Positions 13,024 through 22,292 are shown, counted from the first letter of the stretch. The stretch is DNA of 24,654 bases from a virus (IMGVR_UViG_3300045988_113752:1-24654), one strand, 5' to 3'. Numbers and translations are program-made. The notes: generated by a model not told the origin, from the sequence alone.

Positions 13024-13455
13024 CTATTCAGGTATTTCAATTCCAAAACCATCTGCATCCCATGAGTTTTCACAGATGATGTAACCTAGTTCATTGAGCT
13101 TATTAAATGTTTTTTCAAAGATGATCTGGTAATCATTATCTGCAAGTGATTCCAGTTCAAGGTCATTAAGGTTTATATAAAAACTTGTATGTCCAAGTGT
13201 TATTTTCTTATTAATTTCATTAAAGGTTCTTTTGAAAATAATATTTGATATTTCATGTCGTGCATTGTTTGCAATGATTTTTGCTTCATAAGCAGAAATT
13301 ACGTCATCTTCATGAATATCTTTCAGAAAACTGGTGTCAAGACGTTGTACTATTTCAGCGTTCATTGATCGCTTATTGGCTTTTGCAGAAATTTCTATTT
13401 TTTCTTTTACTTCGACGGGAAGTCTGATCCTTAGTTGTGGATCTTCTCTGCTCAT
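13024..13455 (-). CDS. Mnt-like ribbon-helix-helix repressor with ~100-aa C-terminal extension
   Basis: N-terminus MSREDPQLRIRLPVEVKEKIEISAKANKRSMNAEIVQRL resembles P22 Mnt/Arc RHH domains as I recall them. Transcribed divergently from the Arc-like gene. Start chosen at the ATG giving MSRED; the track ORF starts 10 codons upstream. Confidence 0.55.
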   Translation of the reverse strand: MSREDPQLRIRLPVEVKEKIEISAKANKRSMNAEIVQRLDTSFLKDIHEDDVISAYEAKIIANNARHEISNIIFKRTFNEINKKITLGHTSFYINLNDLELESLADNDYQIIFEKTFNKLNELGYIICENSWDADGFGIEIPE

Positions 13456-13575
13456 GTTCTTCACCAAATATTGAGTTACTTGCAATGATTGAAGTATGCC
13501 TCACCGTGTGCTTGACATCAATGACGCACGGTGTGACAATTATTTTGCCCCACGGTGGGGCTAAGGAGATATGAA
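13456..13575. promoter_or_regulatory. Divergent promoter/operator region between the Mnt-like and Arc-like genes
   Basis: TTGACA at 13512-13517 with a weak -10 (gacaat) 17 nt downstream on the plus strand. Inverted half-sites CACCGTG (13502-13508) and CACGGTG (13527-13533) flank the -35; a third CACGGTG lies at 13551-13557. Confidence 0.45.
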
Positions 13576-13743
13576 ATGCAAAAAGCAAAAGAGATGTGTC
13601 AACGACGAGTTCGTTTTCCGGACGATGTGAAGTTAGCTATTGAAAGAAATGGCGAAAAAGAATGCCGAAAGTTCAATACAGAGATTATCTATCAGCTGAG
13701 GAAAGTGTATGGACTCACTGGTGAGAAGAATAGCGTGGCATAA
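13576..13743 (+). CDS. Arc-like ribbon-helix-helix repressor
   Basis: 55 aa from ATG 13576, with taaggag 8 nt upstream. RVRFPDDVKLAIERNGEKECRKFNTEIIYQLRKVY resembles P22 Arc. Directly upstream of the antirepressor gene. Confidence 0.6.
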   Translation: MQKAKEMCQRRVRFPDDVKLAIERNGEKECRKFNTEIIYQLRKVYGLTGEKNSVA

Positions 13744-13814
13744 AACAGCGAAGCCCCACGGTGGCCAGACCGTCAGGGCTTCAGTATCGTAAAACTACGT
13801 ATAGGAATTAACGA
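13742..13814 (-). ncRNA. Candidate sar-like antisense RNA covering the antirepressor RBS/start
   Basis: Minus-strand promoter TTGATA-N17-TATACT (plus coordinates 13849-13844 and 13826-13821) fires antisense across the ant RBS (13802-13805) and ATG (13816). A strong hairpin (13750-13782) is followed on the minus strand by GCUGUUUUA. Predicted length is ~70 nt. Confidence 0.4.
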
Positions 13815-13815
13815 C

Positions 13816-14754
13816 ATGACGAGTATAGCAACAGCAGTATCTACTATCAACGTGCCATTCCACGGCGCAGAGCTTTATGTTGTCAATCACAACGGCGAAC
13901 CGTATACCCCAATGAAACCTATCGTTGAGGGAATGGGGCTAGACTGGAAATCTCAACATAAGAAGATTTCTCAACGCTTCTCGAAGGGTATGGTGGAAAT
14001 CACCATACCTTCTGCCGGTGGGGTGCAAGCCATGATTTGTATGGCTTTACGAAAATTGGCAGCTTGGTTGAACAGCATCAGCCCTAACAAAGTCCGCCCT
14101 GAAATCCGCGACAAGGTAATCCAGTATCAGGAAGAGTGTGACGATGTGCTCTACGAGTACTGGACTAAAGGCCATGTGGTTAACCCACGCAAAGCTAAAA
14201 AGGCGTTGCCGGGTAAAATAACAACTGAACAGCAGGAAGCCATTAAACAACTCGTCATGAGTCGCGGTCAGTCTCTGCCAAAAGAAAAACAGGCTAAGGC
14301 GATGATCACCATGTGGTCGTCACTGAAATCTCATTTTGGCTGTTCGTACAAAGAAATTGGTGAAGATCAATTTGCCGAAGCGTTGTCTCTTGTTGCTCGG
14401 GTTCCGCTTGAAGGGGAGTATCTCCCTGCTGGATCTGCATCAGAGAATGATGAAGTGGCAGTCAAGATGTTAGATGCGCTTCGTGAGGCAATTAAAACAC
14501 AGACAAAATGTTATGGTTATCCACTGAAGCCCGGCTACCGTAGCCTGATTCATTCGCCGTCTGGTGTTCTCGGCCTGACGGAGAACTCACTGCTGATGAA
14601 TCTGCTGAACCAGTTACAGGAAGACGGGCACGATGTATCGGGCGCGGCGGCGGAGCTGACCACCATGTTCTGCTACATCGTCGGTGTGAGCAAATGCCTG
14701 CGTGATATCCAGACGCACGCGGAATACATCAACGACAAGGCAGGGTTCTTCTGA
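13816..14754 (+). CDS. Antirepressor-like protein (Ant-type N-terminal region plus shared C-terminal domain)
   Basis: 312 aa immediately downstream of the Arc-like gene, in the immI-like arrangement. The C-terminal ~78 aa are identical to the C-terminus of the Bro-N protein at 16006..16698. Confidence 0.55.
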   Translation: MTSIATAVSTINVPFHGAELYVVNHNGEPYTPMKPIVEGMGLDWKSQHKKISQRFSKGMVEITIPSAGGVQAMICMALRKLAAWLNSISPNKVRPEIRDKVIQYQEECDDVLYEYWTKGHVVNPRKAKKALPGKITTEQQEAIKQLVMSRGQSLPKEKQAKAMITMWSSLKSHFGCSYKEIGEDQFAEALSLVARVPLEGEYLPAGSASENDEVAVKMLDALREAIKTQTKCYGYPLKPGYRSLIHSPSGVLGLTENSLLMNLLNQLQEDGHDVSGAAAELTTMFCYIVGVSKCLRDIQTHAEYINDKAGFF

Positions 14755-14774
14755 CAGAACGGCGGCACAGGGAC
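14521..14774. repeat. Inverted repeat, left copy (~253 bp, ~97% identical to 15988..16240 in reverse complement)
   Basis: Aligned by hand: about 6 substitutions, all synonymous in the coding part, plus a small indel just after the stop codon. It encodes the shared antirepressor C-terminal domain. Confidence 0.8.
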
Positions 14775-15884: not shown

Positions 15885-15987
15885 ATGAACCTCAACCAAT
15901 CGACTTTACCAATCGGGTAATTTTAAACATGAGTATAATGCTTTTAACTGCAACGAGTGTAAACAATTATTGATAATTGTAGGCACA

Positions 15988-16240
15988 TCCCTGTGCCGCC
16001 GCCCGTCAGAAGAACCCTGCTTTGTCGTTGATGTACTCCGCGTGCGTCTGGATATCACGCAGGCATTTGCTCACACCGACGATGTAGCAGAACATGGTGG
16101 TCAACTCCGCCGCCGCGCCCGATACGTCGTGCCCGTCTTCCTGTAACTGGTTTAGCAGATTCATCAGCAGTGAGTTCTCCGTCAGGCCGAGAACACCAGA
16201 CGGCGAATGAATCAGGCTGCGGTAGCCGGGCTTCAGTGGG
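15988..16240. repeat. Inverted repeat, right copy (partner of 14521..14774)
   Basis: Reverse complement matches the left copy at ~97%. It encodes the C-terminal 78 aa of the Bro-N antirepressor. Confidence 0.8.
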
Positions 16241-16698
16241 GCGCTGTAGGTTTTGTTCTCTACCTTCATTGCCTGCATCACTGCTGATGCTGTGGCGTTG
16301 GCTACCTGGTCGGCAACCATCTTTATGCGTTCTTCCTGCGGGAGCGAGTTTTTAATGTAACTTCCGGTGCGGCGGATCTGAGGAAGAACCTCACCTGTAA
16401 CCCATTCAAGAAATCTGAATGCTCTCGTTCCCTCAGTCATTGCCTCTTTGCAACGCAGAATAAGGATGTAGAGACCTGATTCTGAAACGATGGATAGTTC
16501 TTGTATTCCACCAGGGGTCTGTATTGAATACAGCCCCTTTTTGTTCCAGCCTTTTTTATCAAGTTTTCTCGCTTGTGTAACATCAATATTCAAAGCATTG
16601 CACACATCTTTGGTGACAAACCAAGGTTCTCCGTCAATCATGAACATACGGATCTGGCAGGATGACTCAAAGGAAAAGATGGAAGGTTTGGTATTCAT
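16006..16698 (-). CDS. Bro-N domain antirepressor with shared C-terminal domain
   Basis: Start chosen at ATG 16698 (AAGGTGA 5 nt upstream), giving MNTKPSIFSFESSCQIRMFMIDGEPWFVTKDVCNALNI, a Bro-N/antirepressor N-terminal signature. The C-terminus is identical to the Ant at 13816..14754. Confidence 0.65.
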   Translation of the reverse strand: MNTKPSIFSFESSCQIRMFMIDGEPWFVTKDVCNALNIDVTQARKLDKKGWNKKGLYSIQTPGGIQELSIVSESGLYILILRCKEAMTEGTRAFRFLEWVTGEVLPQIRRTGSYIKNSLPQEERIKMVADQVANATASAVMQAMKVENKTYSAPLKPGYRSLIHSPSGVLGLTENSLLMNLLNQLQEDGHDVSGAAAELTTMFCYIVGVSKCLRDIQTHAEYINDKAGFF

Positions 16699-17011
16699 AG
16701 CGATCACCTTTGTAGTTAGGTTAATCACCACCGCTGAGACCAATCAGATGGTGGTGAACTGTGCAGAGTTGGTCTTACCGGCTACAAAGGAACCCGGCGC
16801 ACCTTTCGGTGCCCCCACACAGCCCACCATAGAATAGGTGCGCTTTACACATAAAAAAACCGCTTATGCGGCATATGTGCCTCTGTAGTAATCCGGGAGA
16901 CCAATCCCGGCACTGGATTTTGCCAGTGCCCGATTACTATGGCACAAGAGGAGTGCAATGTAAATTTACCGAAAAGGTAAATATAAGCACTCCTATTGGT
17001 AATTTCAAAAC

Positions 17012-17269
17012 TTATCTGGTTTGTTTTCGTAATTGTTCGGCACAATAGTCGAGATGTGTTTGCAGATCCTGCATAGACATCTGTGAGCTGGTGACGTAGT
17101 TAATCAGTGCAGTCAGTTCGGCAAGTGGGCCATCGACATTAAATCCATCCTTATCGAGATCCCGGAGTAATTTCATCAAGTGCGATCCCTCCACCAGTGA
17201 CCTGACGCCTCCCGGCGTGTGAATCCTTTCGGTAAATCCCTCTTCCAGTGGATAGTGATACTGCTGCAT
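17012..17269 (-). CDS. Small protein homologous to the antirepressor C-terminal domain, LexA-box controlled
   Basis: 85 aa from the second ATG (17269), which has GGAG 9 nt upstream; the first ATG (17284) has no RBS. YPLEEGFTERIHTPGGVRSLVEGSHLMKLLRDLDKDGFNVDGPLAELTAL aligns with YPLKPGYRSLIHSPSGVLGLTENSLLMNLLNQLQEDGHDVSGAAAELTTM of both antirepressors. Confidence 0.6.
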   Translation of the reverse strand: MQQYHYPLEEGFTERIHTPGGVRSLVEGSHLMKLLRDLDKDGFNVDGPLAELTALINYVTSSQMSMQDLQTHLDYCAEQLRKQTR

Positions 17270-17289
17270 CTTAATCTTCTCCATGCAAT

Positions 17290-17309
17290 AACTGTATATT
17301 TATACAGTA
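17290..17309. promoter_or_regulatory. LexA (SOS) box aACTGTATATTTATACAGTAg
   Basis: Perfect CTGT-N8-ACAG palindrome with all-AT spacer, near-identical to the E. coli LexA consensus TACTGTATATATATACAGTA. It lies 21 nt upstream of the start codon of the minus-strand small gene. Confidence 0.7.
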
Positions 17310-17345
17310 GCAAATAATTTGTTTGCTATCCAGCACGTTTTGCAA

Positions 17346-17362
17346 ATTACCTGAAAGGTAAT
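17346..17362. promoter_or_regulatory. Perfect palindrome ATTACCT-gaa-AGGTAAT upstream of the tailspike gene
   Basis: 7-bp arms with 3-nt spacer, immediately downstream of TTGCAA (17340-17345), about 105 nt upstream of the tailspike ATG. Confidence 0.3.
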
Positions 17363-17465
17363 ATCTATTCATATTCACAGTCTTTCTATCCATATATGGT
17401 TTTTTGGGTAATAGAATAACCAGATATGCGGCGCAACGGGTGCTGCGACTATCTGGAGATTTAAC

Positions 17466-19766
17466 ATGACGGTCTCAACCGAAGTTGACCACAACGAATA
17501 CACAGGTAACGGCGTTACGACATCATTTCCGTATACCTTCCGTATTTTCAAAAAATCCGACCTGGTTGTTCAGGTGTCTGACCTTAACGGTAACGTTACA
17601 AAACTAGTGCTGGATGCTGGTTATACGGTAACAGGGGCGGGAACTTATAGTGGCGGTGCAGTGGTTCTTCCGTCGCCGCTTGCTGCTGGCTGGCGAATCA
17701 CGATAGAGCGTGTGCTTGATGTGGTGCAGGAGACTGATCTTCGCAATCAGGGAAAATTTTTCCCCGAAGTTCATGAGGATGCATTTGACTACCTGACGAT
17801 GCTGATCCAGCGATGTTTTGGGTGGTTCAGACGTGCATTGATGAAACCATCTTTGCTTGCAAAATATTACGATGCAAAGCAAAACAGAATATCTAACCTT
17901 GCCGATCCATCACTTGAGCAGGACGCTGTAAATAATCGCTCAATGCGTAATTATGTCGATGCTGCAATCGCCGGAGTTATTGGTGGTTTTGGTTGGTTTA
18001 TTCAGTATGGTTCTGGAGCAGTATACCGAACGTTCCAGGATAAGATGAGAGACACCGTTAGTGTTCGCGATTTTGGGGCAAAAGGCGATGGTATAACAGA
18101 TGATACATCTGCATTGATTCTGGCTGCAGAATATGCACGAGAATCATCCAGAACATTACGAGCGGAAGGTAATTTTATTATTACGGAGACATTAAATCTT
18201 CGTAATGTCAGCCTCGAAATGACCAATGCTGTTTTTACCATATCCCACTCAGGGATAGGGGTATTGCTTGGCGGGAATGCATCAAACCCTAACAACCCAA
18301 GACAAAACTTCGGAACGATTATCAGAAATTCTGGTATTTCATCTGAAACGACACCGGATATTCGTATTATCGGGGCAAAAGGGCAGCATATTAACATTGA
18401 GCGTTGCGACTACTTACAGTTATATGCAAACTCTGATGATTCAGTATATGAAACAGATTATTCTATAGCCTACTCAACCTTTAACCTGAAAAAGGTCGAT
18501 ACAATTCATTTTCTTGGTGTAGTTAGAGGTTGGATAAACGAAAACAAGTTTTACCTAAACAGGACAAATAATGTGATTATTGCTGATAATCCGTATTCAC
18601 ATAATCACAACAAGTTTTTTGGTGGAACGATGGAGAATACTGGGGTTATTGACATTCAGCGTGGTAATAATAATCATTTTTACGGACTCCGTTTTGAGCG
18701 CAGACCAGACAACCCAGATGACACACAAAGAATTAATTTTGGTAGTTATACGTGGAATAATTCTGTTCAGGCATCATGGCTTAGCTTTTCTGCATATACC
18801 AATGAACCATATAACCCAAACAATCTTGTAACTGTCACTGATAATGGTAATGGAAATGCTGTATATCATATTCAGGAAGAACTAACTAATGAAGTGTCGC
18901 TTTTTTCAGTGAGTGAGAAAACGCCATTTTTATCAAGCGTTAATATGGGAAGTTCAGATACACCTGATTATGTTACAGATGTAAAAAGTGTGCGAAATTT
19001 AATTCATCTTGTTAATGGTAGTTTTGCTATTGGACGTAACTTCAGGACAATTTGGGAATCAGGTGATATAAGCGTCAGGAATGGCGATGTGTTTGCATTT
19101 ACTTCTGATGTCAGCGCATTCCGCATAAGGGTTTATGGAATTGATGAGAATGGCAGTGTTATTACAAATGAGCCTGAAGGGATTGGTTTTCCAGGGGCTT
19201 CATGGGATGATGAAAACAGTCGTTTTACTACCCAGTCTAACATCGGTAATGCAAAGTTTAGGATAACCGACAAAGGAGGAGTAAAATCAATAAGGGTTGT
19301 CATTCTGTCGGGTGGTAATACATCTGGAATTACCTTCAAATATATCAGATTTACCGGAAGATATTATAAGGATAGTTCTGCGTATCCTCGAAGAAATATG
19401 GATGATCATAATATCCACAGGTCTGGTGCTGTGATGTTTAATTCATCACTTGATGTCAAAATGGAAAATATAGCATCAGGTGTTACCTGTTATGTAAAAG
19501 ATGCATCTGATGTTAAGGTTAATATATTAAGAAATAGATACGTTGTTAAATCGGTGTCCGGGAATACTATATATGTGCGTAACCAGGATGAAATTTCATA
19601 TTCTGGTCCTTATGATGACTTTAAGGTTGCATATACTAGCGGGGCAAAAAATATGATTTCTGATGTTTCAGGAATTTCATCTAATGCAATAAAGTTATCA
19701 GGTAGTGTTCCTTCTGAAATATCAGAAGGAAGCAATATTGATTTGATTAAAATATTAACGAAGTAG
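17466..19766 (+). CDS. Tailspike protein: gp17-like N-terminal anchor plus pectate-lyase-type beta-helix depolymerase domain
   Basis: 766 aa with GGAG RBS. The N-terminal ~150 aa follow the pattern of T7 gp17-type tail fibre N-termini. The central DFGAKGDGITDDTSAL is the hallmark of pectate-lyase-fold tailspikes. The C-terminal half is AT-rich. Confidence 0.8.
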   Translation: MTVSTEVDHNEYTGNGVTTSFPYTFRIFKKSDLVVQVSDLNGNVTKLVLDAGYTVTGAGTYSGGAVVLPSPLAAGWRITIERVLDVVQETDLRNQGKFFPEVHEDAFDYLTMLIQRCFGWFRRALMKPSLLAKYYDAKQNRISNLADPSLEQDAVNNRSMRNYVDAAIAGVIGGFGWFIQYGSGAVYRTFQDKMRDTVSVRDFGAKGDGITDDTSALILAAEYARESSRTLRAEGNFIITETLNLRNVSLEMTNAVFTISHSGIGVLLGGNASNPNNPRQNFGTIIRNSGISSETTPDIRIIGAKGQHINIERCDYLQLYANSDDSVYETDYSIAYSTFNLKKVDTIHFLGVVRGWINENKFYLNRTNNVIIADNPYSHNHNKFFGGTMENTGVIDIQRGNNNHFYGLRFERRPDNPDDTQRINFGSYTWNNSVQASWLSFSAYTNEPYNPNNLVTVTDNGNGNAVYHIQEELTNEVSLFSVSEKTPFLSSVNMGSSDTPDYVTDVKSVRNLIHLVNGSFAIGRNFRTIWESGDISVRNGDVFAFTSDVSAFRIRVYGIDENGSVITNEPEGIGFPGASWDDENSRFTTQSNIGNAKFRITDKGGVKSIRVVILSGGNTSGITFKYIRFTGRYYKDSSAYPRRNMDDHNIHRSGAVMFNSSLDVKMENIASGVTCYVKDASDVKVNILRNRYVVKSVSGNTIYVRNQDEISYSGPYDDFKVAYTSGAKNMISDVSGISSNAIKLSGSVPSEISEGSNIDLIKILTK

Positions 19767-22262: not shown

Positions 22263-22292
22263 AAAACCCTCTGTTACTACAGAGGGTTTTTT
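22263..22292. terminator. Bidirectional intrinsic terminator (AAAA-CCCTCTG-ttacta-CAGAGGG-TTTTTT)
   Basis: Perfect 7-bp stem flanked by an A-run and a T-run, between convergent genes. Confidence 0.7.

Follow-up and report, generated by a model that had tools for sequence, protein, structure and literature searches.

Genomic setting of the spacer

The window analysed here is the whole stretch of 24,654 nucleotides of the viral sequence IMGVR_UViG_3300045988_113752:1-24654. It derives from a phiV10-like podovirus (Uetakevirus group) of Escherichia coli. The spacer under study separates two antirepressor genes, and all RNA features found in it are read on the minus strand, which is also the strand of both flanking genes. 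The adjoining genes and the LexA box are as follows:

17290..17309, minus strand: LexA box CTGT-n8-ACAG (motif 17292-17307) of the small ant promoter, read from the sequence
17012..17284, minus strand: small antirepressor gene ant of the SPC32H type (90-aa ORF; PDB 5D50 chain E; SPC32H ant; phrog_450)
16006..16698, minus strand: Bro-N antirepressor gene, regarded as the regulated target (Pfam Bro-N, 1.9e-13; PHROG anti-repressor families)

The small Ant matched PDB 5D50 chain E ('Anti-repressor protein') with an E-value of 1.7e-47. It is the SPC32H-type Ant, for which a structure of the complex with Rep has been solved. Translation of the small Ant likely starts at the second Met, 17269. The LexA box is perfect, lies upstream of the RNA cassette described below, and occurs also in phiV10, ZX5, phiv142-3, Tyrion, SPC32H, and EC.W1-9. 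The Bro-N Ant possesses a C-terminal domain homologous to the small Ant (41% identity over 78 aa). The AUG of its gene is located at 16698-16696 and the Shine-Dalgarno sequence AAGGUG at 16710-16705. Overexpression of the ZX5 counterpart (Bro-N ORF4) resulted in less lysogeny (PMC9782041); that report on ZX5 mentions neither an sRNA nor LexA control.

At a distance of 3 kb from the cassette, a complete P22-type immI module was identified at 13024-14754. It comprises the following elements:

13485..13024, minus strand: Mnt-like Arc-domain protein
about 13573..13743, plus strand: Arc-like small ORF
13814..13747, minus strand: sar antisense RNA (Rfam, 44.8 bits versus 43)
13816..14754, plus strand: P22_AR_N antirepressor

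With this module, three antirepressor modules under three different controls are present in the window. A 270-bp inverted repeat (14486-14755 and 16005-16274), 92% complementary, coincides with the two large ant genes at their 3' termini. The encoded proteins share C-terminal domains of 84-100% identity, which are homologous to SPC32H Ant. Between the repeat arms lies a segment of 1.25 kb with a DUF2335 membrane-protein gene and a phrog_10654 gene, and this segment could invert or recombine.

At least 80% of a 626-bp query covering the spacer and the small ant (16695-17320) was recovered in 281 of 5426 complete E. coli genomes (~5%). In RefSeq E. coli genomes, only ORFs are annotated under the matches to the cassette.

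An IsrK-type RNA and a C4 RNA

A scan of the entire window at Rfam gathering thresholds yielded three matches, two of them in the spacer:

16929..16853, minus strand: IsrK-type short RNA (Rfam RF01394; 74.7 bits versus gathering threshold 50; E 1.5e-14; full length)
16834..16747, minus strand: C4 antisense RNA (Rfam RF01695; 78.6 bits versus gathering threshold 45; E 4e-14)

The C4 match spans model positions 1-87 of 87. An earlier note on this DNA had suggested a small RNA as one option for the region; the number of RNAs encoded is two. Their order, IsrK followed by C4 and then by the antirepressor gene, is equal to that in Gifsy-1. The c4-a1b1 model (RF03163), which overlaps IsrK, scored 39.9 bits, below its threshold of 46.7, though the a1 and b1 sites are present. 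Weak Rfam matches in the region to FtrA, RT-7, L20 leader, and snoR14 (E 2.7-9.5, far below threshold) were discarded as chance hits, and a tRNA/tmRNA scan of the window gave no match.

The comparative set consisted of the window and 18 other ant-linked loci (19 in all). It included phiV10, ZX5, phiv142-3, Tyrion, two Klebsiella phages, Stx phages of several types, SfV, Salmonella 118970_sal3, APSE-7, Moraxella Mcat4, and P1. A tandem of IsrK (or a1b1) and C4 was present directly upstream of the antirepressor gene in all 18 other loci, and Gifsy-1 has this tandem as well. It was not found in SPC32H, which has the small ant gene only. The Stx2a phage Stx2_EH0787 contains, about 560 nt downstream of C4 (L014 1843-1926), a match of gathering level to sRNA-Xcc1 (75.7 bits).

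All five features listed in the earlier note are present on direct reading of the sequence. Its two abutting hairpins and weak terminator correspond to the three hairpins of the IsrK-type RNA, namely hairpin 1 (16929-16910), hairpin 2 (16909-16894), and a terminator (16872-16859) followed by U7. The terminator stem CCGC-ttat-GCGG at 16860-16871 adjoins seven A residues (16853-16859), read as U7 on the minus strand, and is the sole minus-strand terminator-like site detected by a terminator scan of 16500-17500. The stems CCGGGA/TCCCGG (arms 16893-16898 and 16905-16910) and GGCACTGG/CCAGTGCC (arms 16909-16916 and 16923-16930) exist as described but are not fully separate: G16909-16910 is common to both, so that the real stems have 5 and 7 bp. 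The minimum-energy fold of IsrK equals the structure of the Rfam model (z-score -2.8). In the MAFFT alignment, 91.5% of cells are paired and 9 of 17 pairs show compensatory change; this pairing far exceeds that in shuffled and slid controls. Both the Rfam scores and the folding z-scores place the hairpins of the spacer beyond chance.

An outer helix formed by 16880-16874 with 16853-16847 encloses the IsrK terminator and its U tract. This helix is conserved, being predicted in 18 of 18 IsrK loci with sequences that differ yet remain mutually complementary. Its 3' arm lies partly past the terminator, so the helix is possible in the read-through RNA only. It buries the 3' end of the b1 site and would leave b1 accessible in the short isoform only.

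The largest structure of the spacer, the 17-bp closing stem of C4 (16829-16813 with 16768-16752), was overlooked in the earlier note, as was a second internal hairpin of C4 formed by 16798-16794 and 16781-16777; nor did the note list the antisense complementarities treated below. The GCACC-tttc-GGTGC hairpin at 16799-16812, which that note did list, is the first internal hairpin of C4. The thermodynamic fold of C4 (z-score -4.5) reproduces the model structure. In the MAFFT alignment, 97.6% of 454 cells are paired and 13 of 27 pairs are changed on both sides; none of 500 shuffles reached this compensatory level, and slid controls were 32-50% paired. Covariance across relatives, the check proposed for these hairpins, is accordingly found in both RNAs. 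Of 17 sequences, 15 have CCA after the C4 closing stem, and the window has ACCA at this position. By analogy with the P1 annotation, from which the ends are taken, mature C4 would extend from about 16828 to 16749 and end in ACCA.

Public phage records annotate ORFs over the homologous stretch, and in the window itself ORFs of 66 and 60 aa are located at 16845..17045 and 16866..17048. These ORFs, or the ZX5 ORF called 'ash family protein', could mean that small proteins are encoded here and that the hairpins are incidental. However, neither the frame nor the length of such ORFs is conserved, the substitutions are compensatory for base pairs, and the covariance-model scores are high. The small-ORF readings of the spacer were rejected on the lack of conservation of frame and length, and we give this explanation hardly any credence. 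The ORFs annotated across the IsrK and C4 RNAs in public records include 'ash family protein', 'putitave protein', orf34, and 'immunity region' orf37 (L006 1331-1444, L009 1306-1449, L010 1263-1436, and L013 825-1661). Judging from the unconserved reading frame, they are probably mis-calls.

Promoters and inferred operator

Two tandem promoters and an inferred operator precede the IsrK-type RNA:

16980..17008, minus strand: upstream promoter P2, TTGAAA, 17-nt spacer, TATATT (promoter scan, 10 of 12 matches)
16966..16980, no strand assigned: inferred Rep operator TTACC-n5-GGTAA, between the promoters, core of the palindrome 16950-16994
16936..16964, minus strand: promoter P1 (PisrK), TTTACA, 17-nt spacer ending in TGC, CATAGT (extended -10; promoter scan, 9 of 12 matches with TG)

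PisrK ends 7 nt ahead of the 5' end of IsrK, and its predicted start is near 16929. In phage P1, its counterpart in the alignment is the annotated P1c4/P51b promoter, and -35/-10 pairs line up at this position across all 19 loci; CTTGTGCCATAGT of PisrK is invariant in eight relatives. For P2, the -35 element TTG(A/C/T)AA and an AT-rich -10 element are conserved in seven of the eight phiV10-like and Klebsiella loci. Conservation extends to both promoters in this set, which includes EC.W1-9. The RNA cassette of EC.W1-9 is 100% identical to that in the window, and two genes on the opposite strand are inserted between it and the small ant. Since the promoters are kept even in this phage, the cassette represents an autonomous unit.

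These data bear on the function proposed in the earlier note, namely that the hairpins are terminators or attenuators, which meter read-through from the LexA promoter into the Bro-N gene without antisense action. The gene order LexA box, small ant, cassette, and Bro-N is indeed common to phiV10, ZX5, phiv142-3, and Tyrion, and in the terminator scan the IsrK terminator is the first one on the minus strand past the stop of the small ant (17012). Dependence on the LexA promoter is nevertheless contradicted by the two conserved promoters of the cassette itself and by its separation from the small ant in EC.W1-9. Moreover, the cassette occurs without an upstream LexA gene in Stx phages, SfV, APSE, Mcat4, P1, and Gifsy-1, and attenuation alone leaves the co-change of loop and target sequences (see below) unexplained. 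The part of the proposal that holds is the split between short and read-through transcripts at the weak terminator, which was shown experimentally for the homologous isrK of Gifsy-1 (PMC4825925). The earlier interpretation is, therefore, partly supported, but we regard it as very unlikely that the hairpins work as independent attenuators. What is found instead is an antisense RNA, decoy sites upstream of it, and targets over the ribosome-binding site of the antirepressor gene.

The long palindrome is present with arms GGAGTGC/GCACTCC at 16950-16956 and 16988-16994, and thus ends at 16994 rather than at 16992 as first listed. As a conserved RNA hairpin it was rejected: it folds well (z-score -4.4), but the arms are absent in Tyrion and in the Klebsiella phages. 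Across eight related loci, invariance is limited to the half-sites TTACC and GGTAA; the outer arms differ, as do the 5 nt between the half-sites. Invariant half-sites with a free spacer and variable arms are the pattern of a dimeric DNA-binding protein, and the palindrome was therefore read as a protein operator. This candidate operator abuts the -35 element of the inner promoter and is overlapped by the -10 element and the start site of P2.

The window contains three perfect TTACC-n5-GGTAA sites, and seven sites at no more than one mismatch versus 0.44 expected. In SPC32H, 18 sites were counted versus 0.56 expected; three of them occupy the interval from rep to the divergent cro-like gene, and another three follow just downstream of rep. 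The right arm of phiV10 has nine sites, likewise clustered around the repressor gene. This distribution of sites suggests that TTACC-n5-GGTAA is the Rep operator, which would make it the functional analogue of C1 at Op51 in P1. Among the lambdoid, APSE, Moraxella, and P1 loci checked, the motif was not found. Rep may shut off the entire cassette in the lysogen, and C4 would then be mainly relevant during infection or induction.

The further perfect copies of the motif in the window are located at 15906-15920, upstream of the phrog_10654 gene, and at 17347-17361, between the LexA-controlled ant promoter and the tailspike gene. SPC32H and its relatives have a site at the position matching 17347-17361.

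Antisense recognition sites

The cassette contains two unpaired segments of C4 (a' and b') and two pairs of complementary sites, which are listed here together with one further complementary segment:

16898..16904, minus strand: a1 site UUGGUCU, loop of IsrK hairpin 2, complementary to a'
16880..16888, minus strand: b1 site CUACAGAGG, 9 nt past a1, complementary to b' with one G-U pair
16782..16790, minus strand: b' segment CCUUUGUAG, loop of C4 hairpin 2
16769..16775, minus strand: a' segment AGACCAA, single-stranded, between C4 hairpin 2 and the closing stem
16737..16743, minus strand: a2 target UUGGUCU, 3 nt past the C4 3' end, loop of a small CUGA/UCAG hairpin
16732-16725, minus strand: GGUGGUGA, able to pair with UCACCACC (16757-16750), the 3' strand of the C4 closing stem
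16707..16715, minus strand: b2 target CUACAAAGG, nine Watson-Crick pairs with b', overlapping the AAGGUG Shine-Dalgarno sequence

Segments a' and b' match both the upstream pair a1/b1 and the downstream pair a2/b2, and b2 ends 8 nt ahead of the Bro-N AUG. Within the window, the 10-nt a site occurs at a1 and a2 only. Exact b sites at 2546-2554 and 22277-22285 were rejected as extra C4 targets; they have no adjoining a site, and their count is within chance.

Variation is greatest in the recognition segments, and both target pairs vary along with them. Among the 19 loci, 15 distinct b' loops and eight a' classes were distinguished. Mean duplex energies of cognate versus non-cognate combinations were -12.4 versus -6.0 kcal/mol (b'-b2), -11.2 versus -5.0 kcal/mol (b'-b1), -9.8 versus -6.2 kcal/mol (a'-a2), and -9.9 versus -5.4 kcal/mol (a'-a1). 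A 1-nt deletion in the loop of phiV10 is mirrored in both its targets. As a pattern of sequence change, this is the signature expected of a functional, specificity-determining RNA-RNA interaction. An interaction of this kind was reportedly described for P1/P7 heteroimmunity by Citron and Schuster in 1990.

The 245-nt read-through RNA has a folding z-score of -5.2. Its minimum-energy fold contains the helix between GGUGGUGA and UCACCACC, which as modelled can form only in unprocessed RNA; a2 is then located in a hairpin loop. This helix retains 147 of 152 pairs in the 19 loci and is compensatory in YYZ-2008 and partly compensated in P1. The pairs were counted by script; a MAFFT alignment of the C4 3' strand and the downstream region misaligned APSE-7. 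The helix may have a role in folding or processing of the precursor.

Comparison with known control systems

The immI region of P1 and P7 displays the same element order and the same C4 fold. It comprises in P1 the Op51/Oc4 operator, the P51a/P51b promoters, a1 b1, c4, a2 b2, icd, and ant1/2; the curated P1 annotation gives operator Oc4, promoters P2c4 and P1c4, a1, b1, a 77-nt c4, a2, and b2. Further features in common are the two unpaired recognition segments, the duplicated upstream and downstream target pairs with b2 on the ribosome-binding site, the tandem promoters with an operator (a putative one here) for the primary repressor, and an antirepressor gene as the output. The spacing is also nearly identical: a2 follows C4 after 3 nt in both systems, b2 follows a2 after a gap of 21 nt here versus 22 nt in P1, and b2 precedes the first start codon by 8 nt here and by 9 nt in P1 (ahead of icd).

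Several differences from P1 were also revealed. No icd-like ORF was found between C4 and ant, the AUG of which lies 49 nt past the C4 3' end, whereas P1 has icd, the translation of which is required for transcription of its ant. Here, b2 is located on the Shine-Dalgarno sequence of ant itself, so that Rho-dependent polarity via icd is unneeded. The absence of icd alters the wiring but not the RNA. The a1/b1 leader has an intrinsic terminator of its own (the isrK form), which P1 does not have, and the recognition sequences are AGACCAA and CCUUUGUAG here but CUGUCAA and UCACUAAC in P1. The operator lies between the promoters and would be bound by a Rep of the SPC32H/phiV10 type, whereas the P1 operator is recognised by C1 and is located on the -35 element of the upstream promoter. 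Finally, the N-terminus of the Bro-N Ant is unrelated to that of P1 Ant1/2.

The isrK locus of Gifsy-1 (isrK, orf45/STnc1160, anrP) contains IsrK with its terminator, a C4-family RNA about 25 nt later, and then the antirepressor gene. In the Gifsy-1 sequence (NC_010392), isrK is located at 34316..34240, C4 at 34214..34131, and anrP at 34076..33513. The C4 assignment follows from the score of 'orf45'/STnc1160 with this model (69 bits; region 34131-34316, L022). As on ant here, b2 of Gifsy-1 lies on the Shine-Dalgarno sequence of anrP, and by this likeness of design short and read-through isoforms are to be expected in the phiV10-like phage too. The specificity sequences of Gifsy-1 are not those of the window. 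In Gifsy-1, the ORF beginning within C4 is 45 codons long and extends over the anrP start; here it comprises 28 codons and stops long before ant. The setting also differs: the late/Q region of a lambdoid prophage in Gifsy-1 versus the vicinity of the tailspike gene in a phiV10-like podovirus.

Two other systems are more distant. In P22 immI (mnt, arc, sar, ant), the ribosome-binding region of an antirepressor gene is likewise the target of an antisense RNA, and this gene adjoins the tailspike gene; sar, however, is a cis-antisense RNA from the opposite strand, while C4 comes from the strand and transcript of its own target and carries two short complementary segments. The CI RNA of P4 with seqA/seqC is likewise a processed leader RNA pairing with repeats upstream and downstream of it, and was cited as a structural homologue by the authors of the IsrK study (PMC4825925). 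In P4, the RNA makes transcription of replication genes end prematurely, whereas C4 would block the ribosome-binding site of an antirepressor gene.

Proposed mode of action

We consider it probable that the spacer is an RNA control cassette of the P1-immI/Gifsy-1-isrK type for the Bro-N antirepressor. C4 very probably blocks translation of the adjoining antirepressor gene, in line with the control of Ant by C4 established in P1 (PMC8201110). The direction of regulation, the processing steps, and the binding of Rep are transferred here by homology with these systems.

In this scheme, the phage repressor Rep would bind an operator between the two tandem sigma-70 promoters, and transcripts would begin near 16929 or further upstream. 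Most of them would end at the CCGC/GCGG-U7 terminator, giving an IsrK-type RNA of about 77 nt, in which a hairpin loop would expose a1, with b1 following closely. The read-through RNA would carry C4. The tRNA-like stem ending in ACCA suggests that C4 is excised, probably by RNase P and a 3' activity. Free C4 would use a' and b' to bind the ant mRNA at a2 and b2; since b2 covers the Shine-Dalgarno sequence, the Bro-N Ant would remain untranslated. The short IsrK, having both sites, would titrate C4 and relieve the block. The output of the second antirepressor would, then, be set by the ratio of terminator read-through and by promoter activity.

Data on Gifsy-1 provide experimental background. 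IsrK supplied in trans increased translation of the antirepressor 139-fold and its transcription 8-fold, and mutated IsrK failed to activate in trans (PMC4825925). Binding of Hfq and activation of the long form in trans by the short form are known for Gifsy-1 only (PMC4825925). Mutations in a' derepress strongly, and this derepression persists when only a1 is compensated (PMC4825925). We found that the mutated residues G28 and G31 (G28A, G31A) fall in a1 and that their partners, C162 and C159, are in a', which makes a1:a' an experimentally validated pairing in this homologue. The simplest unified reading that we infer is that IsrK acts as an anti-C4 decoy. Mutations of a1 in cis, however, raise basal expression in Gifsy-1 (PMC4825925), and this does not fit a pure decoy model.

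The authors of the Gifsy-1 study explained their data by RNA refolding and translational coupling through 'orf45', and not by relief from a C4-type repressor (PMC4825925). According to this mechanism, the read-through RNA is inactive, with a1/b1 paired in cis with C4; IsrK refolds it, so that the small ORF is translated and coupled into ant, and C4 is no independent repressor. The minimum-energy fold of the 245-nt RNA does have a1/b1 paired with b'/a' in cis and the C4 3' strand paired with GGUGGUGA, resembling the published structure A, and orf45 stop-codon mutants of Gifsy-1 lose activation (PMC4825925). An AUG at the C4 5' end, as the coupling model would have it, is invariant across loci. 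This AUG, however, belongs to the covarying closing stem, and the 28-codon ORF starting from it in the window has a stop codon that ends at 16744, 45 nt ahead of the ant AUG, which makes coupling by overlap impossible. In the 19 loci, this ORF varies from 3 to more than 60 codons in differing frames, so that neither the length nor the frame needed for coupling of ant to an ORF in the C4 region is conserved. Furthermore, b2 lies directly on the ant Shine-Dalgarno sequence, and Gifsy-1 double mutants with a1:a' restored remain 56- to 80-fold derepressed, as loss of a':a2 predicts. We judge the coupling mechanism to be rather improbable for this cassette, and prefer repression of ant by C4.

A more far-reaching idea concerns three sensors within 4.3 kb, which would all be wired to one Rep-binding Ant domain: the LexA-controlled small Ant, the Bro-N Ant under C4/IsrK, and the P22-type Ant under Mnt/Arc/sar. 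With no terminator between the LexA promoter and the IsrK terminator, SOS transcription would add RNA with the a1/b1 decoy, titrate C4, and turn on the second antirepressor. The cassette would thereby serve as an RNA-level feed-forward amplifier of induction. With 'orf45' of Gifsy-1 being C4 itself, IsrK would in addition be the general anti-C4 decoy of the entire family. We offer this as a tentative and somewhat doubtful possibility.

Significance

The cassette is an ordinary, standard member of a well-studied and characterised family, unannotated in this phage group, and its identification leaves the basic picture unchanged. Specific to the lineage is the wiring, that is, the putative Rep operator between tandem promoters, the absence of an icd-like ORF, and the neighbouring LexA-controlled ant. 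An unannotated spacer of 300 bp is hereby explained; phiV10-like phages used for typing and detection of O157 also carry it, in records with ORFs only. The literatures on IsrK and on P1 c4 become linked, as they deal with the same module and 'orf45'/STnc1160 of Gifsy-1 is a C4 RNA by score. Taken together, the 19 loci amount to a small natural collection of about 15 C4 loop/target specificities that are orthogonal to one another. For the phages themselves, the finding means that they hold a second, very probably RNA-gated antirepressor beside the LexA-gated one, which bears on how and when these prophages induce.
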